Assembly (NCBI RefSeq): GCF_036507355.1
Contig: NZ_AP027879.1
Reading direction: 5' to 3' (one strand)
DNA: 47,389 bases
From: Escherichia coli
Lineage (GTDB): Bacteria > Pseudomonadota > Gammaproteobacteria > Enterobacterales > Enterobacteriaceae
The position numbers and the translations under genes are program-made. Numbering within the stretch: position 1 is the stretch's first letter; each line of letters begins with the position of its first letter. The notes below the pieces were generated by a model. The model made no database searches. It saw nothing but the letters and a program-made list of their open reading frames with translations, and was not told the DNA's origin. Positions 6,698-42,956 of the stretch are shown here, one piece after another.

Positions 6698-6771
6698 GAT
6701 TAATCATCAAATGATTGGTGATGCTGCCAACTTACTGATTTAGTGTATGATGGTGTTTTTGAGGTGCTCCA

Positions 6772-7469: not shown

Positions 7470-7484
7470 GTTGGAGTCATTACC

Positions 7485-7787: not shown

Positions 7788-7837
7788 CATAAATCAGCAC
7801 ACATGAGCCTGTCATTTGACAAATTTTTGTCATGAAG

Positions 7838-9918: not shown

Positions 9919-10001
9919 GCGCGGGGCTAACAGGTAAGATGAAATTAAGGTTTTACGAACACTGCCACTGTAATTAATTACCGCTACTTTCATAAATCAC
10001 C

Positions 10002-10388
10002 TCAGAATTTTTTGTTGAACTTCTTAGGGTCGAAATTCTCACCGATTTTCTTGAAGAATTCTTTATCAATAATGCCGGGACTCTCTGCTTTTTTACTTTC
10101 CTGCACTTCAGGCTCAGACGGTTGTGTATTGTGCAATACACTTTCCGCTGCACCCTTCGCGCTACTCTTATCATGCGTATTGTGCAATACATTTTTTCGG
10201 TTTTGCCGCGTTCTATACAGTGCCATCTCAAGCCCTTTGGCTGTTACCGAAAAGCTGTATTCGCTGTCGAGGATTTCAGCAATTTCATGCCGCGTTAGCC
10301 CTCTGTCCAGCCAGTTCTCGATTTCATTTAGGCGCAATCTGACAGCAGCCGATAAGTTGCGGGGTTTCAGATCTGCTGGTTTATTCAT
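10002..10388 (-). CDS. Hypothetical DNA-binding protein with predicted HTH, 128 aa
   Basis: N-terminal region LDRGLTRHEIAEILD; lysine-rich C-terminus; repeat array directly upstream. Confidence 0.5.
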   Translation of the reverse strand: MNKPADLKPRNLSAAVRLRLNEIENWLDRGLTRHEIAEILDSEYSFSVTAKGLEMALYRTRQNRKNVLHNTHDKSSAKGAAESVLHNTQPSEPEVQESKKAESPGIIDKEFFKKIGENFDPKKFNKKF

Positions 10389-10445
10389 AACCCCCTCCGT
10401 TGTATGAAAATGACTCTACAACACTCGTAAGAAGGGGTCAATCGA

Positions 10446-10610
10446 GTTTTGTAGTTTATCTGTAGTTTTATTGTAGTCTATTTGTAGTCTGTCACGTTTT
10501 TTGTAGTTTATTTGTAGTTTTATTGTAGTCTATTTGTAGTCTTACAACACTAAGGCAAAACGTTTTTTGTAGTTTATCTGTAGTTTATCTGTAGTTTTTG
10601 GTTGCTCAGA
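10446..10610. repeat. Array of about 11 direct repeats of an 11-bp unit (YTGTAGTYTWT)
   Basis: Contiguous repeats upstream of the HTH gene; 22-bp palindrome ATGGTCATGCAAGCATGACCAT follows at 10610-10631. Confidence 0.6.
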
Positions 10611-10936
10611 TGGTCATGCAAGCATGACCATCAAAGAATAGGACGCTTTTTAGCCAAATGCCCCTTAACCTACGGAGATCGCCCTACCAAAAAAAGATGA
10701 TTTTTTATCCCTTAACCTGCTATACACCTAACGCAGCGTGATAAATCACGCTATCGCACTGATTTAAAAGAAAAAAAACAAAATTTAGCCATGCTGCGGT
10801 ATTACCCAGGTATTACAAATCAAATCTAAATTACTGATTTAAATAACTTTTTATTTATTACTTTGGTAATACTATGATTTCACCGTATTAGACACCCTTT
10901 TTTCGTTTAAAAAATGCACAAATTGAGGACTGAATG

Positions 10937-11870
10937 GGCTTTGTTGAATAAATCGAACTTTTGCTGAGTTGAAGGATCAGATCACGCATCTTCCCGACAA
11001 CGCAGACCGTTCCGTGGCAAAGCAAAAGTTCAAAATAACCAACTGGCCCACCTACAATAAAGCCCTCATCAACCGTGGCTCCATAACTTTCTGGCTGGAT
11101 GATGAAGCTATTCAGGCCTGGTATGAGTCAGCAACACCTTCTTCACGAGGCAGACCTCAGCGCTATTCTGACCTTGCCATCACGACTGTGCTGGTCATTA
11201 AACGCGTATTCAGGCTGACCCTGCGCGCTGCGCAGGGCTTTATTGATTCCATTTTTTCTCTGATGAACGTTCCGCTACGCTGCCCGGATTACAGCTGTGT
11301 CAGCAGGCGGGCAAAGTCGGTTAACGTCAGTTTCAAAACGTTCACCCGGGGTGAAATCGCGCATCTGGTGATTGATTCCACCGGGCTGAAGGTCTTTGGT
11401 GAAGGCGAGTGGAAAGTCAAAAAGCATGGCCAGGAACGCCGTCGTATATGGCGAAAGTTGCATCTGGCAGTTGACAGCAACACACATGAAATCATCTGTG
11501 CAGACCTGTCGCTGAACAATGTGACGGACTCAGAAGCCTTCCCGGGTCTTATCCGGCAGACTCACAGAAAAATCAGGGCAGCATCGGCAGACGGCGCTTA
11601 CGACACCCGGCTCTGTCACGATGAACTGCGGCGTAAGAAAATCAGCGCGCTTATCCCTCCCCGAAAAGGTGCGGGTTACTGGCCCGGTGAATATGCAGAC
11701 CGTAACCGTGCAGTGGCTAATCAGCGAATGACCGGGAGTAATGCGCGGTGGAAATGGACAACAGATTACAACCGTCGCTCGATAGCGGAAACGGCGATGT
11801 ACCGGGTAAAACAGCTGTTCGGGGGTTCACTGACGCTGCGTGACTACGATGGTCAGGTTGCGGAGGCTAT
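10937..11870 (+). mobile_element. Second IS903-group copy, 3'-truncated, lacks right IR
   Basis: Left IR intact; homology ends near 11870 where the Tn5393-type IR begins; several aa differences from copy 1. Confidence 0.75.
11014..11870 (+). pseudogene. tnpA: IS903-group transposase, 3'-truncated
   Basis: Reading frame runs into Tn5393 IR sequence after aa about 286. Confidence 0.6.
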
Positions 11871-11950
11871 GGGGTCGTTTGCGGGAGAGGGCGAAATCCT
11901 ACGCTAAGGCTTTGGCCAGCGATATTCTCCGGTAAGATTGATGTGTTCCC
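11870..11950. repeat. Tn5393-type 81-bp terminal inverted repeat
   Basis: GGGGTCGTTTGCGGGA... immediately downstream of the strB stop; a second, slightly divergent copy at 28388-28468. Confidence 0.55.
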
Positions 11951-11976
11951 AGGGGATAGGAGAAGTCGCTTGATAT

Positions 11977-12688
11977 CTAGTATGACGTCTGTCGCACCTG
12001 CTTGATCGCGGCCGCGATAGCTAGATCGCGTTGCTCCTCTTCTCCATCCGCGTTCCAAGCTGCGGAAAGGCACCCATAAGCGTACGCCTGGTCGAGCAGG
12101 CGACGCGGATCGACGTCCAGCGCACGAGAGAATGCGTCCGCCATCTGTGCAATGCGTCTAGGATCGAGACAAAGGTCGTCTCTGTCAGCCGGATCGTAGA
12201 ACATATTGGCGGCGCCAAAGCCCACTTCACCGACCAGACCGACGGGATCTATCACCAGCCAGCCGCGACTGGAGAACATGATGTTTTCATGATGCAGATC
12301 GCCATGTAGCCCACGCAGTTCCGAGGCATTGCTCATCATTTGATCGGCTATAATCGCCGCGTGGACGTAGTCAGTTTGACAACCTGCGTTTTGATCATCG
12401 CGCGCCCGCTGAAACAAAGCTGCAAAGCGATCCCGGATCGGGAGAAGGGCAGAAGGCAGGGGTTCCTCAGATGCGGCATACAGCTTCGCCATTAGTTCCG
12501 CTGCAATTTCGGTCGCCTGGTAGTCGCCGTGCTCGGCAACGATGTGAGAGAGCATTCGCTCCCCGGCATATTCGAGCAACATCAGATTGTTCTCACGACC
12601 GAGCAACCGGACTGCTCCCCTCCCATTGCGCCATACCAGATAGTCGGCCCCGCGCAGTTCATCAGCAATGTCTTCTATAGGTTTCAAT
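11977..12688 (-). pseudogene. strB: aph(6)-Id (strB), 5'-truncated by IS26
   Basis: Matches the C-terminal 237 aa of the full StrB at 27526-28362; N-terminal codons derive from the IS26 end. Confidence 0.85.
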
Positions 12689-13508
12689 GGCACTGTTGCA
12701 AAGTTAGCGATGAGGCAGCCTTTTGTCTTATTCAAAGGCCTTACATTTCAAAAACTCTGCTTACCAGGCGCATTTCGCCCAGGGGATCACCATAATAAAA
12801 TGCTGAGGCCTGGCCTTTGCGTAGTGCACGCATCACCTCAATACCTTTGATGGTGGCGTAAGCCGTCTTCATGGATTTAAATCCCAGCGTGGCGTTGATT
12901 ATCCGTTTCAGTTTGCCATGATCGCATTCAATCACGTTGTTCCGGTACTTAATCTGTCGGTGTTCAACGTCAGACGGGCACCGGCCTTCGCGTTTGAGCA
13001 GAGCAAGCGCGCGACCATAGGCGGGCGCTTTATCCGTGTTGATGAATCGCGGGATCTGCCACTTCTTCACGTTGTTGAGGATTTTACCCAGAAACCGGTA
13101 TGCAGCTTTGCTGTTACGACGGGAGGAGAGATAAAAATCGACAGTGCGGCCCCGGCTGTCGACGGCCCGGTACAGATACGCCCAGCGGCCATTGACCTTC
13201 ACGTAGGTTTCATCCATGTGCCACGGGCAAAGATCGGAAGGGTTACGCCAGTACCAGCGCAGCCGTTTTTCCATTTCAGGCGCATAACGCTGAACCCAGC
13301 GGTAAATCGTGGAGTGATCGACATTCACTCCGCGTTCAGCCAGCATCTCCTGCAGCTCACGGTAACTGATGCCGTATTTGCAGTACCAGCGTACGGCCCA
13401 CAGAATGATGTCACGCTGAAAATGCCGGCCTTTGAATGGGTTCATGTGCAGCTCCATCAGCAAAAGGGGATGATAAGTTTATCACCACCGACTATTTGCA
13501 ACAGTGCC
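12689..13508 (-). mobile_element. IS26, complete, 820 bp (copy a)
   Basis: 14-bp terminal IRs GGCACTGTTGCAAA; Tnp26 ORF. Confidence 0.95.
12741..13445 (-). CDS. tnp26: IS26 transposase Tnp26, N at position 184
   Basis: [18 protein letters not shown]...; residue 184 is N ([10 protein letters not shown]). Confidence 0.95.
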   Translation of the reverse strand: MNPFKGRHFQRDIILWAVRWYCKYGISYRELQEMLAERGVNVDHSTIYRWVQRYAPEMEKRLRWYWRNPSDLCPWHMDETYVKVNGRWAYLYRAVDSRGRTVDFYLSSRRNSKAAYRFLGKILNNVKKWQIPRFINTDKAPAYGRALALLKREGRCPSDVEHRQIKYRNNVIECDHGKLKRIINATLGFKSMKTAYATIKGIEVMRALRKGQASAFYYGDPLGEMRLVSRVFEM

Positions 13509-19081: not shown

Positions 19082-19901
19082 GGCACTGTTGCAAATAGTC
19101 GGTGGTGATAAACTTATCATCCCCTTTTGCTGATGGAGCTGCACATGAACCCATTCAAAGGCCGGCATTTTCAGCGTGACATCATTCTGTGGGCCGTACG
19201 CTGGTACTGCAAATACGGCATCAGTTACCGTGAGCTGCAGGAGATGCTGGCTGAACGCGGAGTGAATGTCGATCACTCCACGATTTACCGCTGGGTTCAG
19301 CGTTATGCGCCTGAAATGGAAAAACGGCTGCGCTGGTACTGGCGTAACCCTTCCGATCTTTGCCCGTGGCACATGGATGAAACCTACGTGAAGGTCAATG
19401 GCCGCTGGGCGTATCTGTACCGGGCCGTCGACAGCCGGGGCCGCACTGTCGATTTTTATCTCTCCTCCCGTCGTAACAGCAAAGCTGCATACCGGTTTCT
19501 GGGTAAAATCCTCAACAACGTGAAGAAGTGGCAGATCCCGCGATTCATCAACACGGATAAAGCGCCCGCCTATGGTCGCGCGCTTGCTCTGCTCAAACGC
19601 GAAGGCCGGTGCCCGTCTGACGTTGAACACCGACAGATTAAGTACCGGAACAACGTGATTGAATGCGATCATGGCAAACTGAAACGGATAATCAACGCCA
19701 CGCTGGGATTTAAATCCATGAAGACGGCTTACGCCACCATCAAAGGTATTGAGGTGATGCGTGCACTACGCAAAGGCCAGGCCTCAGCATTTTATTATGG
19801 TGATCCCCTGGGCGAAATGCGCCTGGTAAGCAGAGTTTTTGAAATGTAAGGCCTTTGAATAAGACAAAAGGCTGCCTCATCGCTAACTTTGCAACAGTGC
19901 C
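19082..19901 (+). mobile_element. IS26, complete (copy b)
   Basis: 14-bp IRs, 820 bp. Confidence 0.95.
19145..19849 (+). CDS. tnp26: IS26 transposase Tnp26, N at position 184
   Basis: Identical protein to copy a. Confidence 0.95.
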   Translation: MNPFKGRHFQRDIILWAVRWYCKYGISYRELQEMLAERGVNVDHSTIYRWVQRYAPEMEKRLRWYWRNPSDLCPWHMDETYVKVNGRWAYLYRAVDSRGRTVDFYLSSRRNSKAAYRFLGKILNNVKKWQIPRFINTDKAPAYGRALALLKREGRCPSDVEHRQIKYRNNVIECDHGKLKRIINATLGFKSMKTAYATIKGIEVMRALRKGQASAFYYGDPLGEMRLVSRVFEM

Positions 19902-20600
19902 GTTTATTCTTCCTATACGTGCCGCGTTCCAGGCGGCGACTATGAGGGCTATGTCGATGCCCATGTGCGCCGGCTGGAGGCGCTACGCCGGGCCGGTATC
20001 GTCGAGCGGATCGACGCCGACCAATGGCGCATCCCCGATGATCTGGTCAGCCGTGCCGCCGCCCATGACGCCGGCCGAGACAGTCAGGCCAGCGTTCGCG
20101 TCCTTTCCCCGGTCGATCTGAACAAACAGATCGGATCGGACGGCGCGACCTGGCTGGACCGGCGGCTGATCCACGGCGAGACGGCCGACCTTGCGCCAAC
20201 CGGCTTCGGGCAACAAGTCCGCGAAGCCATGGACCAGCGCCGCGAGCACCATATCGAACAGGGCGACGCCACCCGCAGCCGGGACAGCCGCGTCTTCTAC
20301 CGGCGCAACCTTCTCGCCATCCTGCGGGAGCGCGAGGTAGCCGGCGTCGGATCGGATATGGCTTTGAGTAAGGGCCTGCCGTTCCGCGCCGCCACGGACG
20401 GCGAGAGCGTCAGCGGCAAGTTTACCGGAACCGTGCATCTATCGAGCGGCAAGTTCGCCGTGGTCGAGAAATCCCATGAGTTCACCCTTGTCCCGTGGCG
20501 GCCGATCATCGACCGCCAACTCGGCCGCGAGGTTATGGGCATCGTGCAGGGCGGGTCGGTGTCGTGGCAGTTAGGGCGGCAGAGGGGGCTGGAACGCTGA
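19902..20600 (+). pseudogene. Relaxase-like (VirD2-type) C-terminal fragment, as seen upstream of floR
   Basis: Frame is open from the IS26 boundary; no intact start; GC-rich. Confidence 0.4.
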
Positions 20601-20816
20601 GTGCGCCCATGCCGCATTGCGAAGCAAAAGATAATCGGATAAAATGTAGCAATTCATATTCGTAAGCGTGGAGTAATCAGATGGGAAATTCCAAGTCAGC
20701 AGACAAGTAAGCCGCAACAACCAGTATTGTTGTTGCGGCGCTCTGTAAGGCTAGTCTCATCTGATTGCTGACGAGCAGACGTCGCCCGGTATTCCTTAAT
20801 CGAGGGTTGATTCGTC

Positions 20817-22031
20817 ATGACCACCACACGCCCCGCGTGGGCCTATACGCTGCCGGCAGCACTGCTGCTGATGGCTCCTTTCGACATCCTCGCTTCACTG
20901 GCGATGGATATTTATCTCCCTGTCGTTCCAGCGATGCCCGGCATCCTGAACACGACGCCCGCTATGATCCAACTCACGTTGAGCCTCTATATGGTGATGC
21001 TCGGCGTGGGCCAGGTGATTTTTGGTCCGCTCTCAGACAGAATCGGGCGACGGCCAATTCTACTTGCGGGCGCAACGGCTTTCGTCATTGCGTCTCTGGG
21101 AGCAGCTTGGTCTTCAACTGCACCGGCCTTTGTCGCTTTCCGTCTACTTCAAGCAGTGGGCGCGTCGGCCATGCTGGTGGCGACGTTCGCGACGGTTCGC
21201 GACGTTTATGCCAACCGTCCTGAGGGTGTCGTCATCTACGGCCTTTTCAGTTCGATTCTGGCGTTCGTGCCTGCGCTCGGCCCTATCGCCGGAGCATTGA
21301 TCGGCGAGTTCTTGGGATGGCAGGCGATATTCATTACTTTGGCTATACTGGCGATGCTCGCACTCCTAAATGCGGGTTTCAGGTGGCACGAAACCCGCCC
21401 TCTGGATCAAGTCAAGACGCGCCGATCTGTCTTGCCGATCTTCGCGAGTCCGGCTTTTTGGGTTTACACTGTCGGCTTTAGCGCCGGTATGGGCACCTAC
21501 TTCGTCTTCTTCTCGACGGCTACCCGTGTGCTCATAGGCCAAGCGGAATATTCCGAGATCGGATTCAGCTTTGCCTTCGCCACTGTCGCGCTTGTAATGA
21601 TCGTGACAGCCCGTTTCGCGAAGTCCTTTGTCGCCAGATGGGGCATCGCAGGATGCGTGGCGCGTGGGATGGCGTTGCTTGTTTGCGGAGCGGTCCTGTT
21701 GGGGATCGGCGAACTTTACGGCTCGCCGTCATTCCTCACCTTCATCCTACCGATGTGGGTTGTCGCGGTCGGTATTGTCTTCACGGTGTCCGTTACCGCG
21801 AACGGCGCTTTGGCAGAGTTCGACGACATCGCGGGATCAGCGGTCGCGTTCTACTTCTGCGTTCAAAGCCTGATAGTCAGCATTGTCGGGACATTGGCGG
21901 TGGCACTTTTAAACGGTGACACAGCGTGGCCCGTGATCTGTTACGCCACGGCGATGGCGGTACTGGTTTCGTTGGGGCTGGTGCTCCTTCGGCTCCGTGG
22001 GGCTGCCACCGAGAAGTCGCCAGTCGTCTAA
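20817..22031 (+). CDS. floR: Florfenicol/chloramphenicol MFS exporter FloR
   Basis: 404 aa starting MTTTRPAWAYTLPAALLLMAPFDIL; 12-TM MFS. Confidence 0.95.
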   Translation: MTTTRPAWAYTLPAALLLMAPFDILASLAMDIYLPVVPAMPGILNTTPAMIQLTLSLYMVMLGVGQVIFGPLSDRIGRRPILLAGATAFVIASLGAAWSSTAPAFVAFRLLQAVGASAMLVATFATVRDVYANRPEGVVIYGLFSSILAFVPALGPIAGALIGEFLGWQAIFITLAILAMLALLNAGFRWHETRPLDQVKTRRSVLPIFASPAFWVYTVGFSAGMGTYFVFFSTATRVLIGQAEYSEIGFSFAFATVALVMIVTARFAKSFVARWGIAGCVARGMALLVCGAVLLGIGELYGSPSFLTFILPMWVVAVGIVFTVSVTANGALAEFDDIAGSAVAFYFCVQSLIVSIVGTLAVALLNGDTAWPVICYATAMAVLVSLGLVLLRLRGAATEKSPVV

Positions 22032-22058
22032 CCGACGACTGGTAGCAGGCCCGCTCCG

Positions 22059-22364
22059 ATGCGGCGCACTAACCATCGAAACCTCGTGAATGTCGGTATC
22101 CTGTCTGGCAGGATACCGCTCATTTCCCTTGTTCAGTTCATCGCCGTCGCCGAGCATCTGAATTTTCGGCATGCGGCCAAGGCACTTGGTATCAGCCAGT
22201 CGAGCGTCAGCGCGCGTGTGAAAGCGCTGGAGGATAACCTTGGTGTCCTGCTATTTGAGCGCCATGCGCGGGGCGTTCGGCTAACAGACGCAGGCAGGCA
22301 CTTCATGGAGCGTGTCACGGCGGGTGTCGATCAACTCGATCACGCAGTGAAGACCGCGGAGTGA
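22059..22364 (+). pseudogene. lysR: LysR-family regulator, N-terminal HTH fragment
   Basis: 101 aa with HTH region only; effector domain missing. Confidence 0.6.
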
Positions 22365-22369
22365 CGGGC

Positions 22370-24193
22370 ACTGGCTGGCAATGTCTAGCAACGGCAGGCA
22401 TTTCGGCTGAGGGTAAAAGAACTTTCCGCTAAGCGATAGACTGTATGTAAACACAGTATTGCAAGGACGCGGAACATGCCTCATGTGGCGGCCAGGACGG
22501 CCAGCCGGGATCGGGATACTGGTCGTTACCAGAGCCACCGACCCGAGCAAACCCTTCTCTATCAGATCGTTGACGAGTATTACCCGGCATTCGCTGCGCT
22601 TATGGCAGAGCAGGGAAAGGAATTGCCGGGCTATGTGCAACGGGAATTTGAAGAATTTCTCCAATGCGGGCGGCTGGAGCATGGCTTTCTACGGGTTCGC
22701 TGCGAGTCTTGCCACGCCGAGCACCTGGTCGCTTTCAGCTGTAAGCGTCGCGGTTTCTGCCCGAGCTGTGGGGCGCGGCGGATGGCCGAAAGTGCCGCCT
22801 TGCTGGTTGATGAAGTACTGCCTGAACAACCCATGCGTCAGTGGGTGTTGAGCTTCCCGTTTCAGCTGCGTTTCCTGTTTGCCAGCCGGCCCGAGATCAT
22901 GGGGTGGGTGCTGGGCATCGTTTACCGCGTCATTGCCACGCACCTGGTCAAGAAAGCGGGCCATACCCACCAAGTGGCCAAGACGGGCGCGGTCACCCTG
23001 ATCCAGCGTTTTGGATCGGCGCTCAATCTGAATGTTCACTTCCACATGCTGTTTCTCGACGGTGTGTATGTCGAGCAATCCCACGGCTCAGCGCGTTTCC
23101 GCTGGGTCAAGGCGCCGACCAGCCCAGAGCTCACCCAGCTGACGCACACCATCGCCCACCGGGTGGGTCGCTATCTGGAACGGCAAGGCCTGCTGGAACG
23201 GGATGTCGAAAACAGCTATCTGGCCTCGGATGCGGTGGATGACGACCCGATGACACCCCTGCTGGGGCACTCGATCACTTACCGTATCGCTGTCGGTTCA
23301 CAGGCGGGGCGAAAGGTGTTCACTTTGCAAACTCTGCCGACCAGTGGTGATCCGTTCGGTGACGGGATTGGCAAGGTAGCCGGGTCCAGCCTGCACGCCG
23401 GCGTGGCGGCCAGGGCCGATGAACGCAAGAAGCTCGAACGGCTGTGCCGGTACATCAGCCGCCCGGCGGTATCCGAGAAGCGGCTGTCGTTAACACGAGG
23501 CGGCAACGTGCGCTACCAGCTCAAGACGCCGTACCGGGACGGCACCACGCACGTCATTTTCGAACCATTGGATTTCATTGCAAGGCTGGCCGCCCTGGTA
23601 CCGAAGCCCAGAGTCAACCTAACCCGCTTCCACGGGGTGTTCGCACCCAACAGTCGGCACCGGGCGTTGGTCACGCCGGCAAAACGGGGCAGGGGCAACA
23701 AGGTCAGGGTGGCTGATGAACCGGCAACACCAGCACAACGGCGAGCGTCGATGACATGGGCGCAACGGCTCAAGCGTGTTTTCAATATCGACATCGAGAC
23801 CTGCAGCGGCTGCGGCGGCGCCATGAAAGTCATCGCCTGCATTGAAGACCCTATAGTGATCAAGCAGATCCTTGATCACCTGAAGCACAAAGCCGAAACC
23901 AGCGGGACCAGGGCGTTACCCGAAAGCCGGGCGCCACCGGCTGAGCTGCTCCTGGGTCTGTTTGACTGACGAGCCTGAAGGCCAACGATACCAATCAAAA
24001 TGCTGCGTTCACAGCGCCGCGGCAGGGATCCGCCGTGCTGGTTGTCGGAAAAGGAGCCGCTAGTGGGAAAGAGGAGGGTAAATTTTCAGCGTTGCTGGCT
24101 CCCCGTCAGCCGGATTGGGTTGCATCGCAGGGGTGTCGAAAGAGTCAACTGCGGTCCAAAGCTGTTGGACTTGGGTGAAAAGGGCGTTTATTC
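22370..24193 (+). mobile_element. ISCR2 (IS91-like rolling-circle element); boundaries approximate
   Basis: Contains the ISCR2 transposase; right side ends at an IS26 fragment. Confidence 0.5.
22476..23969 (+). CDS. ISCR2 rolling-circle transposase
   Basis: 497 aa with HUH/zinc-binding motifs (CESCHAEHLVAFSCKRRGFCPSCGARRM). Confidence 0.9.
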   Translation: MPHVAARTASRDRDTGRYQSHRPEQTLLYQIVDEYYPAFAALMAEQGKELPGYVQREFEEFLQCGRLEHGFLRVRCESCHAEHLVAFSCKRRGFCPSCGARRMAESAALLVDEVLPEQPMRQWVLSFPFQLRFLFASRPEIMGWVLGIVYRVIATHLVKKAGHTHQVAKTGAVTLIQRFGSALNLNVHFHMLFLDGVYVEQSHGSARFRWVKAPTSPELTQLTHTIAHRVGRYLERQGLLERDVENSYLASDAVDDDPMTPLLGHSITYRIAVGSQAGRKVFTLQTLPTSGDPFGDGIGKVAGSSLHAGVAARADERKKLERLCRYISRPAVSEKRLSLTRGGNVRYQLKTPYRDGTTHVIFEPLDFIARLAALVPKPRVNLTRFHGVFAPNSRHRALVTPAKRGRGNKVRVADEPATPAQRRASMTWAQRLKRVFNIDIETCSGCGGAMKVIACIEDPIVIKQILDHLKHKAETSGTRALPESRAPPAELLLGLFD

Positions 24194-24447
24194 GGCACTG
24201 TTGCAAATAGTCGGTGGTGATAAACTTATCATCCCCTTTTGCTGATGGAGCTGCACATGAACCCATTCAAAGGCCGGCATTTTCAGCGTGACATCATTCT
24301 GTGGGCCGTACGCTGGTACTGCAAATACGGCATCAGTTACCGTGAGCTGCAGGAGATGCTGGCTGAACGCGGAGTGAATGTCGATCACTCCACGATTTAC
24401 CGCTGGGTTCAGCGTTATGCGCCTGAAATGGAAAAACGGCTGCGCTG
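24194..24447 (+). mobile_element. IS26 fragment (first about 254 bp including IRL and tnp 5' end)
   Basis: Identical to the IS26 left end; interrupted by inverted complete IS26 copy c. Confidence 0.8.
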
Positions 24448-24448
24448 G

Positions 24449-25268
24449 GGCACTGTTGCAAAGTTAGCGATGAGGCAGCCTTTTGTCTTATTCAAAGGCC
24501 TTACATTTCAAAAACTCTGCTTACCAGGCGCATTTCGCCCAGGGGATCACCATAATAAAATGCTGAGGCCTGGCCTTTGCGTAGTGCACGCATCACCTCA
24601 ATACCTTTGATGGTGGCGTAAGCCGTCTTCATGGATTTAAATCCCAGCGTGGCGTTGATTATCCGTTTCAGTTTGCCATGATCGCATTCAATCACGTTGT
24701 TCCGGTACTTAATCTGTCGGTGTTCAACGTCAGACGGGCACCGGCCTTCGCGTTTGAGCAGAGCAAGCGCGCGACCATAGGCGGGCGCTTTATCCGTGTT
24801 GATGAATCGTGGGATCTGCCACTTCTTCACGTTGTTGAGGATTTTACCCAGAAACCGGTATGCAGCTTTGCTGTTACGACGGGAGGAGAGATAAAAATCG
24901 ACAGTGCGGCCCCGGCTGTCGACGGCCCGGTACAGATACGCCCAGCGGCCATTGACCTTCACGTAGGTTTCATCCATGTGCCACGGGCAAAGATCGGAAG
25001 GGTTACGCCAGTACCAGCGCAGCCGTTTTTCCATTTCAGGCGCATAACGCTGAACCCAGCGGTAAATCGTGGAGTGATCGACATTCACTCCGCGTTCAGC
25101 CAGCATCTCCTGCAGCTCACGGTAACTGATGCCGTATTTGCAGTACCAGCGTACGGCCCACAGAATGATGTCACGCTGAAAATGCCGGCCTTTGAATGGG
25201 TTCATGTGCAGCTCCATCAGCAAAAGGGGATGATAAGTTTATCACCACCGACTATTTGCAACAGTGCC
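24449..25268 (-). mobile_element. IS26, complete (copy c)
   Basis: 14-bp IRs, 820 bp. Confidence 0.95.
24501..25205 (-). CDS. tnp26: IS26 transposase Tnp26, N at position 184
   Basis: Same protein as copies a and b. Confidence 0.95.
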
Positions 25269-25600
25269 CCGGTAACTATCAACTTGAGTCCAACCCGGAA
25301 AGACACGACAAAACGCCACTGGCAGCAGCCATTAGTAACAGGAGTGCACGAGAAGATAGATTAAGAGGTCTTGAAGTAGAGGCCTGACTGCGGCTACACT
25401 GAAAGAACAGTTTTGGTAATGGCGGTCTCGTGAACCCTGTTACCGGGTTAAGCAGTTCCCCAACTGACTTAACCTTCGAACAAACCGCCTCCCCAGGCGG
25501 TTTTTTCGTTTACAGAGCAAGAGATTACGATTCATTGAAAAGGATCTCAAGAAGATCCTTTGTAGATTACTATCAATTAATCTTCCGAACATGACACCAG
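25269..25600 (+). other. ColE1-type replicon remnant (RNAI/RNAII control region); origin proper deleted by IS26
   Basis: Colinear with the pBR322-type ori region from CGGTAACTATC..TTGAGTCCAACCCGG through AAAGGATCTCAAGAAGATCCTTTG. Confidence 0.5.
25407..25506 (+). ncRNA. RNAI-like antisense RNA of the ColE1-type remnant
   Basis: Position matches RNAI in ColE1-type origins; ends in hairpin plus T-run CCGCCTCCCCAGGCGGTTTTTT. Confidence 0.4.
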
Positions 25601-25846
25601 TCACTGTTGATTACGGTTAAACCGCTCCGTAACAGGTTTCCCTCGTATTGGTGACTTGCAGCACCAAAGAAGCAAAAAAGATAAATATATCTACTTATTG
25701 AGAGATGATATATTTATTTCCAAAATGCTACAGATACATCATCATGAAACGGATCACCGCAAACAGGTTACTCGCCTGGGGATTCCCTTTCGACCCGAGC
25801 ATCCGTATGATACTCATGCTCGATTATTATTATTATAGAAGCCCCC

Positions 25847-26662
25847 ATGAATAAATCGCTCATCATTTTCGGCATCGTCAACATAACCTCGGACAGTTTC
25901 TCCGATGGAGGCCGGTATCTGGCGCCAGACGCAGCCATTGCGCAGGCGCGTAAGCTGATGGCCGAGGGGGCAGATGTGATCGACCTCGGTCCGGCATCCA
26001 GCAATCCCGACGCCGCGCCTGTTTCGTCCGACACAGAAATCGCGCGTATCGCGCCGGTGCTGGACGCGCTCAAGGCAGATGGCATTCCCGTCTCGCTCGA
26101 CAGTTATCAACCCGCGACGCAAGCCTATGCCTTGTCGCGTGGTGTGGCCTATCTCAATGATATTCGCGGTTTTCCAGACGCTGCGTTCTATCCGCAATTG
26201 GCGAAATCATCTGCCAAACTCGTCGTTATGCATTCGGTGCAAGACGGGCAGGCAGATCGGCGCGAGGCACCCGCTGGCGACATCATGGATCACATTGCGG
26301 CGTTCTTTGACGCGCGCATCGCGGCGCTGACGGGTGCCGGTATCAAACGCAACCGCCTTGTCCTTGATCCCGGCATGGGGTTTTTTCTGGGGGCTGCTCC
26401 CGAAACCTCGCTCTCGGTGCTGGCGCGGTTCGATGAATTGCGGCTGCGCTTCGATTTGCCGGTGCTTCTGTCTGTTTCGCGCAAATCCTTTCTGCGCGCG
26501 CTCACAGGCCGTGGTCCGGGGGATGTCGGGGCCGCGACACTCGCTGCAGAGCTTGCCGCCGCCGCAGGTGGAGCTGACTTCATCCGCACACACGAGCCGC
26601 GCCCCTTGCGCGACGGGCTGGCGGTATTGGCGGCGCTGAAAGAAACCGCAAGAATTCGTTAA
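25847..26662 (+). CDS. sul2: Sulfonamide-resistant dihydropteroate synthase Sul2
   Basis: 271 aa starting MNKSLIIFGIVNITSDSFSDGG. Confidence 0.95.
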   Translation: MNKSLIIFGIVNITSDSFSDGGRYLAPDAAIAQARKLMAEGADVIDLGPASSNPDAAPVSSDTEIARIAPVLDALKADGIPVSLDSYQPATQAYALSRGVAYLNDIRGFPDAAFYPQLAKSSAKLVVMHSVQDGQADRREAPAGDIMDHIAAFFDARIAALTGAGIKRNRLVLDPGMGFFLGAAPETSLSVLARFDELRLRFDLPVLLSVSRKSFLRALTGRGPGDVGAATLAAELAAAAGGADFIRTHEPRPLRDGLAVLAALKETARIR

Positions 26663-26722
26663 CTGCACATTCGGGATATTTCTCTATATTCGCGCTTCAT
26701 CAGAAAACTGAAGGAACCTCCA

Positions 26723-27526
26723 TTGAATCGAACTAATATTTTTTTTGGTAAATCGCATTCTGACTGGTTGCCTGTCAGAGGCGGAGAATCTGGTGATTTT
26801 GTTTTTCGACGTGGTGACGGGCATGCCTTCGCGAAAATCGCACCTGCTTCCCGCCGCGGTGAGCTCGCTGGAGAGCGTGACCGCCTCATTTGGCTCAAAG
26901 GTCGAGGTGTGGCTTGCCCCGAGGTCATCAACTGGCAGGAGGAACAGGAGGGTGCATGCTTGGTGATAACGGCAATTCCGGGAGTACCGGCGGCTGATCT
27001 GTCTGGAGCGGATTTGCTCAAAGCGTGGCCGTCAATGGGGCAGCAACTTGGCGCTGTTCACAGCCTATCGGTTGATCAATGTCCGTTTGAGCGCAGGCTG
27101 TCGCGAATGTTCGGACGCGCCGTTGATGTGGTGTCCCGCAATGCCGTCAATCCCGACTTCTTACCGGACGAGGACAAGAGTACGCCGCAGCTCGATCTTT
27201 TGGCTCGTGTCGAACGAGAGCTACCGGTGCGGCTCGACCAAGAGCGCACCGATATGGTTGTTTGCCATGGTGATCCCTGCATGCCGAACTTCATGGTGGA
27301 CCCTAAAACTCTTCAATGCACGGGTCTGATCGACCTTGGGCGGCTCGGAACAGCAGATCGCTATGCCGATTTGGCACTCATGATTGCTAACGCCGAAGAG
27401 AACTGGGCAGCGCCAGATGAAGCAGAGCGCGCCTTCGCTGTCCTATTCAATGTATTGGGGATCGAAGCCCCCGACCGCGAACGCCTTGCCTTCTATCTGC
27501 GATTGGACCCTCTGACTTGGGGTTGA
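26723..27526 (+). CDS. strA: Aminoglycoside 3''-phosphotransferase APH(3'')-Ib
   Basis: 267 aa; classic sul2-strA-strB order. Confidence 0.95.
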   Translation: MNRTNIFFGKSHSDWLPVRGGESGDFVFRRGDGHAFAKIAPASRRGELAGERDRLIWLKGRGVACPEVINWQEEQEGACLVITAIPGVPAADLSGADLLKAWPSMGQQLGAVHSLSVDQCPFERRLSRMFGRAVDVVSRNAVNPDFLPDEDKSTPQLDLLARVERELPVRLDQERTDMVVCHGDPCMPNFMVDPKTLQCTGLIDLGRLGTADRYADLALMIANAEENWAAPDEAERAFAVLFNVLGIEAPDRERLAFYLRLDPLTWG

Positions 27527-28362
27527 TGTTCATGCCGCCTGTTTTTCCTGCTCATTGGCACGTTTCGCAACCTGTTCTCATTGCGGACACCTTTTCCAGC
27601 CTCGTTTGGAAAGTTTCATTGCCAGACGGGACTCCTGCAATCGTCAAGGGATTGAAACCTATAAAAGACATTGCTGATGAACTGCGCGGGGCCGACTATC
27701 TGGTATGGCGCAATGGGAGGGGAGCAGTCCGGTTGCTCGGTCGTGAGAACAATCTGATGTTGCTCGAATATGCCGGGGAGCGAATGCTCTCTCACATCGT
27801 TGCCGAGCACGGCGACTACCAGGCGACCGAAATTGCAGCGGAACTAATGGCGAAGCTGTATGCCGCATCTGAGGAACCCCTGCCTTCTGCCCTTCTCCCG
27901 ATCCGGGATCGCTTTGCAGCTTTGTTTCAGCGGGCGCGCGATGATCAAAACGCAGGTTGTCAAACTGACTACGTCCACGCGGCGATTATAGCCGATCAAA
28001 TGATGAGCAATGCCTCGGAACTGCGTGGGCTACATGGCGATCTGCATCATGAAAACATCATGTTCTCCAGTCGCGGCTGGCTGGTGATAGATCCCGTCGG
28101 TCTGGTCGGTGAAGTGGGCTTTGGCGCCGCCAATATGTTCTACGATCCGGCTGACAGAGACGACCTTTGTCTCGATCCTAGACGCATTGCACAGATGGCG
28201 GACGCATTCTCTCGTGCGCTGGACGTCGATCCGCGTCGCCTGCTCGACCAGGCGTACGCTTATGGGTGCCTTTCCGCAGCTTGGAACGCGGATGGAGAAG
28301 AGGAGCAACGCGATCTAGCTATCGCGGCCGCGATCAAGCAGGTGCGACAGACGTCATACTAG
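27526..28362 (+). CDS. strB: Aminoglycoside 6-phosphotransferase APH(6)-Id
   Basis: 278 aa from MFMPPVFPAHW; 1-bp overlap with the strA stop. Confidence 0.95.
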   Translation: MFMPPVFPAHWHVSQPVLIADTFSSLVWKVSLPDGTPAIVKGLKPIKDIADELRGADYLVWRNGRGAVRLLGRENNLMLLEYAGERMLSHIVAEHGDYQATEIAAELMAKLYAASEEPLPSALLPIRDRFAALFQRARDDQNAGCQTDYVHAAIIADQMMSNASELRGLHGDLHHENIMFSSRGWLVIDPVGLVGEVGFGAANMFYDPADRDDLCLDPRRIAQMADAFSRALDVDPRRLLDQAYAYGCLSAAWNADGEEEQRDLAIAAAIKQVRQTSY

Positions 28363-28387
28363 ATATCAAGCGACTTCTCCTATCCCC

Positions 28388-28468
28388 TGGGAACACATCA
28401 ATCTCACCGGAGAATATCGCTGGCCAAAGCCTTAGCGTAGGATTCCGCCCCTTCCCGCAAACGACCCC
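28388..28468. repeat. Tn5393-type 81-bp terminal inverted repeat downstream of strB
   Basis: Reverse complement begins GGGGTCGTTTGCGGGAAGGGG. Confidence 0.5.
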
Positions 28469-28717
28469 TTTCTGGCGCGTTTGCAGGGCCATAGACGGCC
28501 GCCAGCCCAGCGGCGAGGGCAACCAGCCCGGTGAGCGTCGGAAAGGCGCTGGAAGCCCCGTAGCGACGCGGAGAGGGGCGAGACAAGCCAAGGGCGCAGG
28601 CTCGATGCGCAGCACGACATAGCCGGTTCTCGCAAGGACGAGAATTTCCCTGCGGTGCCCCTCAAGTGTCAATGAAAGTTTCCAACGCGAGCCATTCGCG
28701 AGAGCCTTGAGTCCACG
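28469..28717. other. Short non-coding segment joining the strB/IR end to the tet module; origin uncertain (contains GCCCCTCAAGTGTCA)
   Basis: No ORF; ends exactly where tetR-upstream sequence begins without a Tn1721 IR. Confidence 0.3.
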
Positions 28718-29032
28718 CTAGATCTATCTCATCTGCGCAAGGCAGAACGTGAAGACGGCCGCCCTGGACCTCGCCCGCGAGCGCCAGGCGCACGAGGCCG
28801 GCGCGCGGACCCGCGCCACGGCCCACGAGCGGACGCCGCAGCAGGAGCGCCAGAAGGCCGCCAGAGAGGCCGAGCGCGGCCGTGAGGCTTGGACGCTAGG
28901 GCAGGGCATGAAAAAGCCCGTAGCGGGCTGCTACGGGCGTCTGACGCGGTGGAAAGGGGGAGGGGATGTTGTCTACATGGCTCTGCTGTAGTGAGTGGGT
29001 TGCGCTCCGGCAGCGGTCCTGAGCGGTCCTGA

Positions 29033-29683
29033 TCAATCGTCACCCTTTCTCGGTCCTTCAACGTTCCTGACAACGAGCCTCCTTTTCGCCAATCCATCGA
29101 CAATCACCGCGAGTCCCTGCTCGAACGCTGCGTCCGGACGGGCTTCGTCGAAGGCGTCTATCGCGGCCCGCAACAGCGGCGAGAGCGGAGCCTGTTCAAC
29201 GGTGCCGCCGCGCTCGCCGGCATCGCTGTCGCCGGCCTGCTCCTCAAGCACGGCCCCAACAGTGAAGTAGCTGATTGTCATCAGCGCATTGACGGCGTCC
29301 CCGGCCGAAAAACCCGCCTCGCAGAGGAAGCGAAGCTGCGCGTCGGCCGTTTCCATCTGCGGTGCGCCCGGTCGCGTGCCGGAATGGATGCGCGCGCCAT
29401 CGCGGTAGGCGAGCAGCGCCTGCCTGAAGCTGCGGGCATTCCCGATCAGAAATGAGCGCCAGTCGTCGTCGGCTCTCGGCACCGAATGCGTATGATTCTC
29501 CGCCAGCATGGCTTCGGCCAGTGCGTCGAGCAGCGCCCGCTTGTTCCTGAAGTGCCAGTAAAGCGCCGGCTGCTGAACCCCCAACCGTTCCGCCAGTTTG
29601 CGTGTCGTCAGACCGTCTACGCCGACCTCGTTCAACAGGTCCAGGGCGGCACGGATCACTGTATTCGGCTGCAACTTTGTCAT
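29033..29683 (-). CDS. tetR: Tetracycline repressor TetR, class A (variant copy)
   Basis: 216 aa from MTKLQPNTVIRAALDLL; differs from the second copy at two residues. Confidence 0.95.
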   Translation of the reverse strand: MTKLQPNTVIRAALDLLNEVGVDGLTTRKLAERLGVQQPALYWHFRNKRALLDALAEAMLAENHTHSVPRADDDWRSFLIGNARSFRQALLAYRDGARIHSGTRPGAPQMETADAQLRFLCEAGFSAGDAVNALMTISYFTVGAVLEEQAGDSDAGERGGTVEQAPLSPLLRAAIDAFDEARPDAAFEQGLAVIVDGLAKRRLVVRNVEGPRKGDD

Positions 29684-29692
29684 GCTTGACAC

Positions 29693-29788
29693 TTTATCAC
29701 TGATAAATATAATATGTCCACCAACTTATCAGTGATAAAGAATCCGCGCGTTCAATCGGACCAGCGGAGGCTGGTCCGGAGGCCAGAC
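29693..29788. promoter_or_regulatory. tetR/tetA divergent promoter region with tet operator palindromes
   Basis: ACTTTATCACTGATAAA and CTTATCAGTGATAAAG between the divergent genes. Confidence 0.7.
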
Positions 29789-30988
29789 GTGAAACCCAAC
29801 AGACCCCTGATCGTAATTCTGAGCACTGTCGCGCTCGACGCTGTCGGCATCGGCCTGATTATGCCGGTGCTGCCGGGCCTCCTGCGCGATCTGGTTCACT
29901 CGAACGACGTCGCCGCCCACTATGGCATTCTGCTGGCGCTGTATGCGTTGATGCAATTTGCCTGCGCACCTGTGCTGGGTGCGCTGTCGGATCGTTTCGG
30001 GCGGCGGCCGGTCTTGCTCGTCTCGCTGGCCGGCGCTGCTGTCGACTACGCCATCATGGCGACGGCGCCTTTCCTTTGGGTTCTCTATATCGGGCGGATC
30101 GTGGCCGGCATCACCGGGGCGACTGGGGCGGTAGCCGGCGCTTATATTGCCGATATCACTGATGGCGATGAGCGCGCGCGGCACTTCGGCTTCATGAGCG
30201 CCTGTTTCGGGTTCGGGATGGTCGCGGGACCTGTGCTCGGTGGGCTGATGGGCGGTTTCTCCCCCCACGCTCCGTTCTTCGCCGCGGCAGCCTTGAACGG
30301 CCTCAATTTCCTGACGGGCTGTTTCCTTTTGCCGGAGTCGCACAAAGGCGAACGCCGGCCGTTACGCCGGGAGGCTCTCAACCCGCTCGCTTCGTTCCGG
30401 TGGGCCCGGGGCATGACCGTCGTCGCCGCCCTGATGGCGGTCTTCTTCATCATGCAACTTGTCGGACAGGTGCCGGCCGCGCTTTGGGTCATTTTCGGCG
30501 AGGATCGCTTTCACTGGGACGCGACCACGATCGGCATTTCGCTTGCCGCATTTGGCATTCTGCATTCACTCGCCCAGGCAATGATCACCGGCCCTGTAGC
30601 CGCCCGGCTCGGCGAAAGGCGGGCACTCATGCTCGGAATGATTGCCGACGGCACAGGCTACATCCTGCTTGCCTTCGCGACACGGGGATGGATGGCGTTC
30701 CCGATCATGGTCCTGCTTGCTTCGGGTGGCATCGGAATGCCGGCGCTGCAAGCAATGTTGTCCAGGCAGGTGGATGAGGAACGTCAGGGGCAGCTGCAAG
30801 GCTCACTGGCGGCGCTCACCAGCCTGACCTCGATCGTCGGACCCCTCCTCTTCACGGCGATCTATGCGGCTTCTATAACAACGTGGAACGGGTGGGCATG
30901 GATTGCAGGCGCTGCCCTCTACTTGCTCTGCCTGCCGGCGCTGCGTCGCGGGCTTTGGAGCGGCGCAGGGCAACGAGCCGATCGCTGA
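29789..30988 (+). CDS. tetA: Tetracycline efflux MFS pump TetA, class A (variant copy)
   Basis: 399 aa from GTG at VKPNRPLIVILSTVALDAVGIG; three aa differences from the second copy. Confidence 0.95.
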   Translation: MKPNRPLIVILSTVALDAVGIGLIMPVLPGLLRDLVHSNDVAAHYGILLALYALMQFACAPVLGALSDRFGRRPVLLVSLAGAAVDYAIMATAPFLWVLYIGRIVAGITGATGAVAGAYIADITDGDERARHFGFMSACFGFGMVAGPVLGGLMGGFSPHAPFFAAAALNGLNFLTGCFLLPESHKGERRPLRREALNPLASFRWARGMTVVAALMAVFFIMQLVGQVPAALWVIFGEDRFHWDATTIGISLAAFGILHSLAQAMITGPVAARLGERRALMLGMIADGTGYILLAFATRGWMAFPIMVLLASGGIGMPALQAMLSRQVDEERQGQLQGSLAALTSLTSIVGPLLFTAIYAASITTWNGWAWIAGAALYLLCLPALRRGLWSGAGQRADR

Positions 30989-37595: not shown

Positions 37596-38415
37596 GGCAC
37601 TGTTGCAAAGTTAGCGATGAGGCAGCCTTTTGTCTTATTCAAAGGCCTTACATTTCAAAAACTCTGCTTACCAGGCGCATTTCGCCCAGGGGATCACCAT
37701 AATAAAATGCTGAGGCCTGGCCTTTGCGTAGTGCACGCATCACCTCAATACCTTTGATGGTGGCGTAAGCCGTCTTCATGGATTTAAATCCCAGCGTGGC
37801 GCCGATTATCCGTTTCAGTTTGCCATGATCGCATTCAATCACGTTGTTCCGGTACTTAATCTGTCGGTGTTCAACGTCAGACGGGCACCGGCCTTCGCGT
37901 TTGAGCAGAGCAAGCGCGCGACCATAGGCGGGCGCTTTATCCGTGTTGATGAATCGCGGGATCTGCCACTTCTTCACGTTGTTGAGGATTTTACCCAGAA
38001 ACCGGTATGCAGCTTTGCTGTTACGACGGGAGGAGAGATAAAAATCGACAGTGCGGCCCCGGCTGTCGACGGCCCGGTACAGATACGCCCAGCGGCCATT
38101 GACCTTCACGTAGGTTTCATCCATGTGCCACGGGCAAAGATCGGAAGGGTTACGCCAGTACCAGCGCAGCCGTTTTTCCATTTCAGGCGCATAACGCTGA
38201 ACCCAGCGGTAAATCGTGGAGTGATCGACATTCACTCCGCGTTCAGCCAGCATCTCCTGCAGCTCACGGTAACTGATGCCGTATTTGCAGTACCAGCGTA
38301 CGGCCCACAGAATGATGTCACGCTGAAAATGCCGGCCTTTGAATGGGTTCATGTGCAGCTCCATCAGCAAAAGGGGATGATAAGTTTATCACCACCGACT
38401 ATTTGCAACAGTGCC
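37596..38415 (-). mobile_element. IS26, complete (copy d)
   Basis: 14-bp IRs, 820 bp. Confidence 0.95.
37648..38352 (-). CDS. tnp26: IS26 transposase Tnp26, G at position 184
   Basis: [10 protein letters not shown]. Confidence 0.95.
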   Translation of the reverse strand: MNPFKGRHFQRDIILWAVRWYCKYGISYRELQEMLAERGVNVDHSTIYRWVQRYAPEMEKRLRWYWRNPSDLCPWHMDETYVKVNGRWAYLYRAVDSRGRTVDFYLSSRRNSKAAYRFLGKILNNVKKWQIPRFINTDKAPAYGRALALLKREGRCPSDVEHRQIKYRNNVIECDHGKLKRIIGATLGFKSMKTAYATIKGIEVMRALRKGQASAFYYGDPLGEMRLVSRVFEM

Positions 38416-38598
38416 GTCCTGCGAATATGTGAGTTTTGACCTAATGAGCCACAAAAACTCATTTTCGCCCACGATAATTTTTCTACTTCCTTTCTTTGGA
38501 ATGCTCATTTCAATATTCACATAACGTCGCTATCAATCGCGGAAAAGGCGTAGTGCGCGAAGCGAACGAAGCTTTTTGCCGTCGATTGCATAGCTTTG
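38416..38598 (-). other. Region downstream of the dfrA cassette, expected to hold its attC; truncated by IS26
   Basis: Position between dfrA stop and IS26; attC not delimited. Confidence 0.3.
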
Positions 38599-39081
38599 TT
38601 AACCCTTTTTCCAAATTTGATAGCAATAGTTAATGTTTGAAGTAAAGTGTTGCTCAAAAACAACTTCGAAGGTATTTGGAATACTCGGGAAGAAAACATC
38701 CCCCTCTGGCTCGATGTCGATCGTCGATAAGTGGAGCGTAGAGGCCATGGGTAATGTTTCTCGGTAAATTTCTCCGCCACCAGACACTATAACGTGACCG
38801 GTGAATTCAGCTAGCCTGTCCATGGCCTCTTCGATTGACTGAAATACAACTACATTGTCATCATTTGATGTCCAACCTGAGCGGGTAACGACCGCGTATT
38901 TCCTATTGGGGAGTGCGCCCATAGATTCAAACGTCTTGCGACCCACCAGAAGCCACTGATTGTAGGTCAATGCTTTAAAAAGTAGCTGCTCCCCTTTCGC
39001 GGACCAGGGTATGTCTGGACCGCAACCAATCACGCCGTTTTTCGCTTTCGCAGCCATCAATGATACTTTCAAGGTTCTCAT
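38599..39081 (-). CDS. dfrA14: Trimethoprim-resistant dihydrofolate reductase DfrA (dfrA14/dfrA5 group)
   Basis: 160-aa ORF; type B DHFR; allele assignment from recalled sequence is tentative. Confidence 0.8.
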
Positions 39082-39227
39082 CCTGGGTTAACTTTGTTTT
39101 AGGGCGACTGCCCTGCTGCGTAACATCGTTGCTGCTCCATAACATCAAACATCGACCCACGGCGTAACGCGCTTGCTGCTTGGATGCCCGAGGCATAGAC
39201 TGTACAAAAAAACAGTCATAACAAGCC
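39082..39227. promoter_or_regulatory. attI1 recombination site region of a class 1 integron
   Basis: GCCCTAAAACAAAGTTAACC between intI1 start and the first cassette. Confidence 0.6.
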
Positions 39228-41869: not shown

Positions 41870-41902
41870 CGTACGATTTTTTCCGAATTCTGCGGGCTCC
41901 CC
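41865..41902. repeat. Tn1721 38-bp inverted repeat (internal IR preceding the tet module)
   Basis: Reverse complement GGGGAGCCCGCAGAATTCGGAAAAAATCGTACGCTAAG. Confidence 0.8.
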
Positions 41903-42200
41903 TATCTCATCTGCGCAAGGCAGAACGTGAAGACGGCCGCCCTGGACCTCGCCCGCGAGCGCCAGGCGCACGAGGCCGGCGCGCGGACCCGCGCCACGGC
42001 CCACGAGCGGACGCCGCAGCAGGAGCGCCAGAAGGCCGCCAGAGAGGCCGAGCGCGGCCGTGAGGCTTGGACGCTAGGGCAGGGCATGAAAAAGCCCGTA
42101 GCGGGCTGCTACGGGCGTCTGACGCGGTGGAAAGGGGGAGGGGATGTTGTCTACATGGCTCTGCTGTAGTGAGTGGGTTGCGCTCCGGCAGCGGTCCTGA

Positions 42201-42851: not shown

Positions 42852-42860
42852 GCTTGACAC

Positions 42861-42956
42861 TTTATCACTGATAAACATAATATGTCCACCAACTTATCAG
42901 TGATAAAGAATCCGCGCGTTCAATCGGACCAGCGGAGGCTGGTCCGGAGGCCAGAC
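42861..42956. promoter_or_regulatory. tetR/tetA divergent promoter and operators
   Basis: Same operator palindromes as in copy 1. Confidence 0.7.

Follow-up and report, generated by a model that had tools for sequence, protein, structure and literature searches.

A probable relic of a small ColE1-superfamily resistance plasmid, with its RNAI gene, between IS26 and sul2 in Escherichia coli

Results

A ColE1-type replicon stub lies between IS26 and sul2

We analyzed a 47,389-nucleotide stretch of Escherichia coli DNA (contig NZ_AP027879.1; hereafter the window). Positions 1-7500 are 100% identical to the IncX-type backbone of several E. coli and Salmonella plasmids, with genes for a RepB-family initiator, MipZ and DNA distortion polypeptide 3, so the window is plasmid-borne and not chromosomal; the carrier is presumably a low-copy IncX-type plasmid. 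Placed between a complete IS26 and sul2 is a replicon stub of 293 bases (25269-~25561). The features of this region are:

24194..24448, plus strand: truncated IS26, nt 1-255 only, interrupted by the adjoining IS26 (BLAST of IS26 against the window, 100% over 255 bp)
24449..25268, minus strand: complete IS26, 820 bp, with terminal GGCACTGTTGCAAA repeats (“copy c” of the first-pass annotation)
25269..25513, minus strand: RNAII 5′ part, ~nt 1-245 (alignment to ColE1 and CloDF13)
25371..25400, plus strand: RNAI promoter, -35 TTGAAG at 25371-25376, 18-nt spacer, -10 TACACT at 25395-25400
25407..25512, plus strand: RNAI antisense RNA gene, ~105 nt (Rfam RF00106, fold, terminator scan)
25522..25550, minus strand: RNAII promoter, -35 TTGAGA at 25550-25545, 17-nt spacer, -10 TAATCT at 25527-25522
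25562..25747, no strand assigned: AT-rich backbone segment without ColE1 homology, found only in the p9123 / pCERC1 / pSS046_spA family
25748..25846, plus strand: generic sul2 upstream segment, common to thousands of sul2 contexts
25847..26662, plus strand: sul2 (open reading frame list; colinear with the annotated sul2 of small plasmids L001, L002 and L003)
26723-27526, plus strand: strA, aph(3'')-Ib (open reading frame list; annotation of small plasmid L001)
27526-28362, plus strand: strB, aph(6)-Id (open reading frame list; annotation of small plasmid L001)

The element at 24449-25268 is labelled IS26 in the annotation of identical plasmids too. Its transposase gene, tnp26, runs from 25205 to 24501 on the minus strand, and it is the transposase-start end of IS26 that adjoins the replicon remnant, the junction reading …TTTGCAACAGTGCC on the IS26 side followed directly by CCGGTAACTATCAACTTGAG… on the remnant side.

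The RNAI gene of the stub is intact

RNAI is an RNA of ~105-108 nt that blocks primer formation in trans. An Rfam scan of the whole window matched RNAI (RF00106) to 25408-25509 on the plus strand with 73.9 bits against a gathering score of 47 (E = 8.4e-12), over the full length of the model (positions 1-102 of 102), and we placed the transcript start at A25407. Folded alone, 25407-25512 forms a single-stranded 5′ tail and three stem-loops, with identical minimum free energy and centroid structures; its folding energy is -44.3 kcal/mol (z = -6.6), and none of 200 shuffled sequences was equally stable. The third hairpin, at 25482-25503, is followed by a T-run that extends to 25511 and doubles as a terminator in our terminator scan. 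The gene is identical to the RNAI of pEC31-5, a replicating 6.2-kb plasmid (105/105), and to that of p9123 (NC_005324; 100%), and its promoter and terminator sequences are identical to those of intact small plasmids.

RNAI is antisense to the 5′ leader of RNAII, and the RNAII promoter faces it. In a five-plasmid alignment of the window, pEC31-5, pKP18-2172-3, CloDF13 and ColE1, both the RNAI hexamers (TTGAAG-18-TACACT) and the RNAII hexamers (TTGAGA-17-TAATCT) are invariant; we take these hexamers to be promoters from established knowledge of ColE1/pMB1, their conservation alone being what we examined here. At the level of sequence, the stub RNAI has every feature that defines RF00106, and transcription probably still yields RNAI (~105 nt) and a shortened RNAII. 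The first-pass annotation had described a ColE1-type replicon remnant with an apparently intact RNAI gene, its hairpins and a T-run terminator. The beyond-chance Rfam match, the three stem-loops, the terminator, the conserved hexamers and the identity to replicating 6.2-kb plasmids bear this description out, as does the alignment to ColE1-type replicons.

IS26 has truncated RNAII and the origin is absent

Alignment to ColE1 and CloDF13 places the RNAII +1 at ~25513, with RNAII running leftwards and its -35 hexamer inside a conserved palindrome, AAAGGATCTCAAGAAGATCCTTT (25540-25562). Colinearity with the ColE1 control region begins at 25269, right after IS26, as had been noted at first pass, and the motifs quoted then are all present, with TTGAGTCCAACCCGG at 25285-25299 and AAAGGATCTCAAGAAGATCCTTTG at 25540-25563. 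The remnant had also been drawn as extending to 25846. Its left part, 25269-~25561, stands; ColE1 homology ends at ~25561 on the right side, and 25562-25846 has no homology to ColE1-type replicons.

Full-length RNAII measures ~520-555 nt to the origin. In the window it is cut by IS26 at ~nt 245, at a junction equivalent to ColE1 ~902, and the part that is left keeps the RNAI target and lacks the G-run, the primer 3′ region and the origin. We located these missing elements by aligning an intact small plasmid to ColE1 in the RNAII sense (74% over 947 bp, together with a base-level alignment): beyond the junction, the intact plasmid continues into the G-run (GAACGGGGGGTTCGTGCA), a highly conserved primer block (AACAGGAGAGCGCACGAGGGAGCT…) and the GGAAAAACG region at the origin, and its origin-equivalent lies ~277 bp past 25269. 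By BLAST colinearity with the small plasmids, the G-run, the conserved primer/origin block and other ori-side DNA are absent throughout the window. Because RNAII is cut and the window holds no ori-side DNA, the stub cannot act as an origin, and we rejected a still-functional origin on these grounds. Of what a functional ColE1-type replicon comprises, the stub lacks full-length RNAII, the G-run, the primer 3′ block and the RNA-DNA switch region; the earlier statement that IS26 had removed the origin is thus confirmed.

A 52-aa open reading frame overlies the RNAII region in ColE1-type plasmids (L001 4308-4466; ColE1, L004, 784-942), where it is annotated as “replication initiation protein” or “hypothetical protein.” Its window equivalent would be 25229-25387, with the start removed by IS26. 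It belongs to no NCBIfam family, and we treated it as spurious, probably a propagated annotation.

The stub RNAI belongs to the CloDF13-like branch

Identity of the stub RNAI falls from 105/105 with pEC31-5 to 97/105 with a Klebsiella 5.6-kb plasmid, 88/106 (83%) with CloDF13 and 64/109 (59%) with ColE1, so that by sequence it is CloDF13-like rather than ColE1-like. CloDF13 has the same promoter hexamers, an identical stem-loop II, and a stem-loop III with the same loop and compensatory changes in the stem, whereas its stem-loop I is unlike that of the stub (18/30). ColE1/pMB1 shares the architecture of convergent RNAI and RNAII promoters, a three-stem-loop RNAI and a palindrome at the RNAII promoter, and the RNAII body of ColE1 is 74% identical to that of the stub’s intact relative. 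In contrast, RNAI loops II and III of ColE1 are unlike those of the stub, ColE1/pMB1 has the origin that the stub has lost, and no rom gene is annotated in the stub’s source family. Because the RNAI loops differ from those of ColE1, “ColE1-type” is right only in the broad sense.

Tomizawa and Itoh, and Lacatena and Cesareni, reportedly found in 1981 that RNAI specificity resides in the loops, and that single loop changes produce new compatibility groups. Any trans effect of the stub RNAI should reach only plasmids whose own RNAI is cognate or near-cognate, and an effect on ColE1, pMB1 or p15A-type plasmids is not expected. The first-pass suggestion that the retained RNAI could affect co-resident ColE1-type plasmids is, in this light, plausible but too broad.

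The resistance genes came from a p9123 / pCERC1 / pSS046_spA family plasmid

The 578 bp at 25269-25846 are 100% identical to pEC31-5 (6,200 bp) and 99.8% identical to many 6.2-kb sul2-strA-strB plasmids, to 6.8-kb pCERC1-like plasmids with dfrA14 in strA, and to the 8.4-kb Shigella sonnei plasmid pSS046_spA. This comparison with small sul2 plasmids had been proposed at first pass, and the matches are colinear. In BLAST, colinearity with pEC31-5 continues over 25269-28468 (3,200 bp, 99.94%) and ends at 28468; pSS046_spA is colinear with 25269-30960 through tetR-tet(A), except for 79 extra window bases at 28470-28548.

We next asked which part of this stretch is diagnostic of its source. Of the 4,195 PLSDB records that match 25513-25846, 182 cover at least 80% of it, and most start at 25748/25751; we set the sul2 upstream boundary from this spread of matches (query start 236/239). 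The DNA to the left of it differs in distribution: just ~182 PLSDB records share 25562-25747, and ~480 bp of the colinear stretch are confined to the p9123 / pCERC1 / pSS046_spA family. Since the near-identity includes these family-only ~480 bp, we conclude that sul2-strA-strB derives from a member of this family. Proof of a small-plasmid source lies in these left ~480 bp alone, because the DNA to the right of strB is generic, consisting of Tn5393 and Tn1721 pieces. That the cluster arrived on a small ColE1-like plasmid had been raised at first pass as a possibility; the 3,200 bp that are 99.9% colinear with p9123, pEC31-5 and pSS046_spA, in which near-identity extends to backbone-specific, non-resistance DNA, now identify this family as the donor.

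The small plasmids of the family all carry a full-length RNAI match of equal score and are typed as rep_cluster_2335 by MOB-suite. The family corresponds to Branger’s RelN_RNA type 1, which includes p9123 and pCERC1; sul2 is present in every member and strA/strB in most (PMC6807383). S. sonnei commonly harbours the spA plasmid (PMC8092226).

Identity alone gives no direction, and the small plasmids could conversely have taken the segment from a large IS26-rich plasmid. The two sides of the comparison are not symmetrical. p9123, pEC31-5, the pCERC1-like plasmids and pSS046_spA share with the window, colinearly, RNAI, both promoters, the spacer and the resistance genes, whereas in the window the remainder of RNAII, the origin and all of the backbone are missing and an IS26 terminal repeat takes their place, at 25268/25269. 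Because the small plasmids run on into a complete replicon while the window stops at the IS26 repeat, descent is from small to large plasmid. Reverse descent would require a truncated half, ending exactly at the IS26 terminal repeat, to yield a functional replicon, which it cannot; this is contradicted by the intact plasmid’s alignment to ColE1 (74% over the same 947 bp), in which the small-plasmid sequence passes seamlessly into the rest of RNAII and the origin. We give reverse descent almost no credence.

Other resistance DNA in the window was recorded alongside. The tetR-tet(A) Tn1721 fragment is present in two copies, at 28549-30960 and 41902-44128, and at the junction of Tn1721 with the DNA downstream of strB the window is ~37 bases longer than pTB422, at 28784-28820. 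A second strB fragment (11870-12688) adjoins IS26 at 12689. The window’s dfrA14 cassette (38520-39138, minus strand) is 99.5% identical to the cassette of a pCERC1-like plasmid; it lies in an integron context and not within strA, and adjoins an Rfam AAC_AAD_leader/attI match at 39066-39138 (64.2 bits).

The IS26 junction did not arise by simple insertion

The complete IS26 at 24449-25268 is flanked by TGCGCTGG and CCGGTAAC; these 8-mers differ, and there is no target-site duplication. Its left flank is a plus-strand IS26 cut at its nt 255 by the minus-strand copy. We therefore rejected simple IS26 insertion with target duplication: the unmatched flanks and the truncated IS26 on the left show that the junction came from a more complex IS26 event, namely insertion of IS26 into IS26, deletion, inversion or IS26-IS26 recombination. 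We also considered an IS26-bounded pseudo-compound transposon or translocatable unit: the closest IS26 on the right side, at 37596-38415, shares the orientation of the 24449-25268 copy, but the flanking 8-mers differ.

To the left of this junction, a floR-lysR-ISCR2 segment (19902-24193) lies between two direct plus-strand IS26 copies (window 19082-24448). The 8 bp GTTTATTC occur both to the right of the first of these copies and to the left of the second, around floR-lysR-ISCR2. The 19082-24448 stretch resembles either a translocatable unit of IS26 or an ISCR2 end that has been duplicated.

One junction is found on several plasmid backbones

Searching with a junction query (25189-25348, counted at a coverage of at least 80%), we found the identical IS26 junction in 13 of 72,556 PLSDB records and in 12 of 5,426 complete E. 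coli genomes; among the matches listed, all were plasmid-borne. The junction is found on IncFIB, IncX1, IncX3 and IncFIA/FIC backbones with different DNA to the left of IS26. Carriers include the IncFIB plasmid pTB422, with oqxAB to the left of IS26; the IncX1 plasmid pS163-2.2; the IncFIA/FIC plasmid pZ1322PEC0188-4; and a 171-kb plasmid with floR to the left. The IncX3 plasmid pKP5076-2 of K. pneumoniae (L010 1903-3067) has IS26 and the stub up to window-equivalent 25614, including RNAI and both promoters, and lacks sul2 and anything rightward. On the four remnant-bearing PLSDB plasmids that we inspected, MOB-suite called no Col-type replicon. That one junction recurs in so many left contexts suggests that truncation happened once and that its product then moved in linkage with IS26. 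In the literature searched, which did not extend to the pCERC1 paper (Anantham and Hall 2012), we found no explicit description of this junction between IS26 and truncated RNAII-sul2, and it is present, unremarked, in about two dozen deposited plasmids.

An uncut state is represented by pECW602 (NZ_CP058344, 95-kb), in which an entire p9123-like plasmid is integrated at ~7000-13200, with its backbone, origin, RNAI, sul2-strA-strB and ΔISCR2, between a complete ISCR2 and an ISCR2 fragment. By its sequence, pECW602 is a cointegrate whose ColE1-type origin may still function. It makes entry through the ISCR2 fragment, followed by IS26-mediated deletion, a credible route to the truncated stub.

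Copies of the remnant are mostly identical to the window. One copy has T>G at 25504, in the terminator T-run. In S163-2 (pS163-2.2), 5 of 6 mismatches over 4.9 kb fall inside the 293-bp stub, at window-equivalent 25281, 25313, 25334, 25512 and 25517, and by eye the A>G changes at 25281 and 25334 seem to equal the ColE1/pMB1 base. The S163-2 changes could reflect relaxed constraint, gene conversion with a ColE1-like patch, or a slightly different donor; the numbers are small. The ET665 copy, at 98% identity, comes from a record full of frameshifted genes, and we set its divergence aside as probable assembly errors.

Substitutions of this kind, with T>G at 25504 and the five changes in S163-2 as examples, would fit a stub that is fully silent and inert, neither RNA reaching a level that matters. 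The cognate plasmid is absent from most hosts, and what points to expression is promoter conservation only. However, plasmids whose copy control relies on the promoter, transcript and terminator have the very same sequences, and nothing upstream has changed so as to silence the RNAI promoter, so we regard a wholly inert stub as unlikely.

Discussion

A non-replicating relic with a limited predicted effect

We conclude, with a probability of roughly 85%, that the stub was left by a small ColE1-superfamily resistance plasmid, one of the p9123 / pCERC1 / pSS046_spA family, and no longer replicates. In the history that we propose, a small plasmid carrying sul2-strA-strB (plus tetA(A) in the spA form) would have joined a large plasmid. 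An IS26 event would then have deleted the backbone and the origin-proximal half of the replicon, leaving behind the RNAII promoter, the first ~245 nt of RNAII and the complete RNAI gene, including the promoter and terminator that belong to it. With IS26, the IS26-remnant-sul2-strAB-tet(A) block would subsequently have moved onto several backbones.

The relic would be unable to prime replication. In trans, the RNAI/RNAII copy-number circuit of a cognate plasmid would register it as an additional “copy” that does not replicate, and the copy number of that plasmid would be lowered only slightly, approximately in proportion to stub dosage; the effect would be small because the carrier is presumably low-copy. 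The retained RNAI is thus predicted to modify copy number at most weakly and in a narrow range of plasmids. The simplest account of the stub’s persistence would be that it hitch-hikes between IS26 and sul2 and is not selected.

Could the stub instead have been selected as a trans-acting incompatibility determinant, with an RNAI that depresses or displaces p9123-family plasmids sharing the cell and the resistance genes? Both RNAI and its promoter are intact and match replicating plasmids base for base, an isolated RNAI gene does lower the copy number of a cognate plasmid (PMC3478263), and pKP5076-2 has kept the stub despite losing sul2. Retention is nevertheless explained by a single event and IS26 linkage, as all copies share one junction; the low-copy carrier would supply a small dose, the stub also carries an RNAII decoy, and substitutions are seen in some copies, the terminator T-run included. 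Co-residence does not help to decide. The family origin (at least 99% identity) is found in 97 E. coli records, ~1.8% of genomes, and although none of the 12 stub-bearing E. coli strains appears among the 60 family-plasmid records listed, only ~0.2 co-occurrences would be expected among 12 genomes, so the comparison is powerless. On balance we find selection for incompatibility very unlikely.

The geometry of the junction raises another possibility, in which the key part of the stub is the RNAII promoter, reading into IS26 in the tnp26 sense, raising transposase expression and so aiding spread of the block. The promoter hexamers and their 17-nt spacing are conserved, and tnp26 lies on the same strand ~308 nt downstream of the RNAII +1. 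The sole terminator-like site between them (25329-25315; weak, with 6 pairs) lies in natural RNAII, where it must be read through for priming, and at least four types of backbone carry the block. Yet this argument is one of geometry; resistance DNA linked to IS26 ordinarily reaches a few backbones, and IS26 moves efficiently without external promoters. We consider a role in transposase expression highly doubtful. It is also improbable, from what the sequence offers, that two active promoters make the stub an RNAI “weapon” against p9123/spA-type rivals, a source of tnp26-boosting read-through, or both; if they did, a fossil replication-control module would be a functional accessory of an IS26 resistance unit.

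The preferred reading, a hitch-hiking relic, bears chiefly on provenance. The window’s sul2-strA-strB, probably together with tet(A), descends from the globally spread p9123/pCERC1/spA small plasmids, and a single IS26 junction has since reached IncF and IncX plasmids in E. coli, Shigella and Klebsiella. Replicon typing aimed at RNAI could be misled by such stubs, and the stub should be taken out where the region is cloned beside a cognate replicon. The stub leaves current understanding unchallenged.

Comparison with known systems

Well-described natural parallels are Tn6029 and Tn6026, where likewise a small-plasmid replicon fragment accompanies sul2-strAB beside IS26 in the resistance region of a large plasmid; Tn6029 is IS26-bounded and carries a partial IncQ (RSF1010) replicon with sul2-strAB (PMC3817090). 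The donor in these transposons was a protein-initiated IncQ plasmid, represented by repA/repC fragments, whereas the stub derives from an RNA-primed ColE1-type plasmid and has kept a complete antisense-RNA gene.

An engineered parallel is pSAMRNAI, a p15A vector that carries the RNAI of pBR322. As in the stub, an intact RNAI gene sits apart from its origin on another replicon, and a pBR322-type plasmid falls from 49 to 18 copies in its presence (PMC3478263). pSAMRNAI is, however, present at ~14-18 copies/cell, whereas the stub is natural, resides on an IncX-type and presumably low-copy carrier, and also retains the RNAII promoter with the RNAI target. The stub is therefore a kind of relic already known, from a donor family that is itself known and named.
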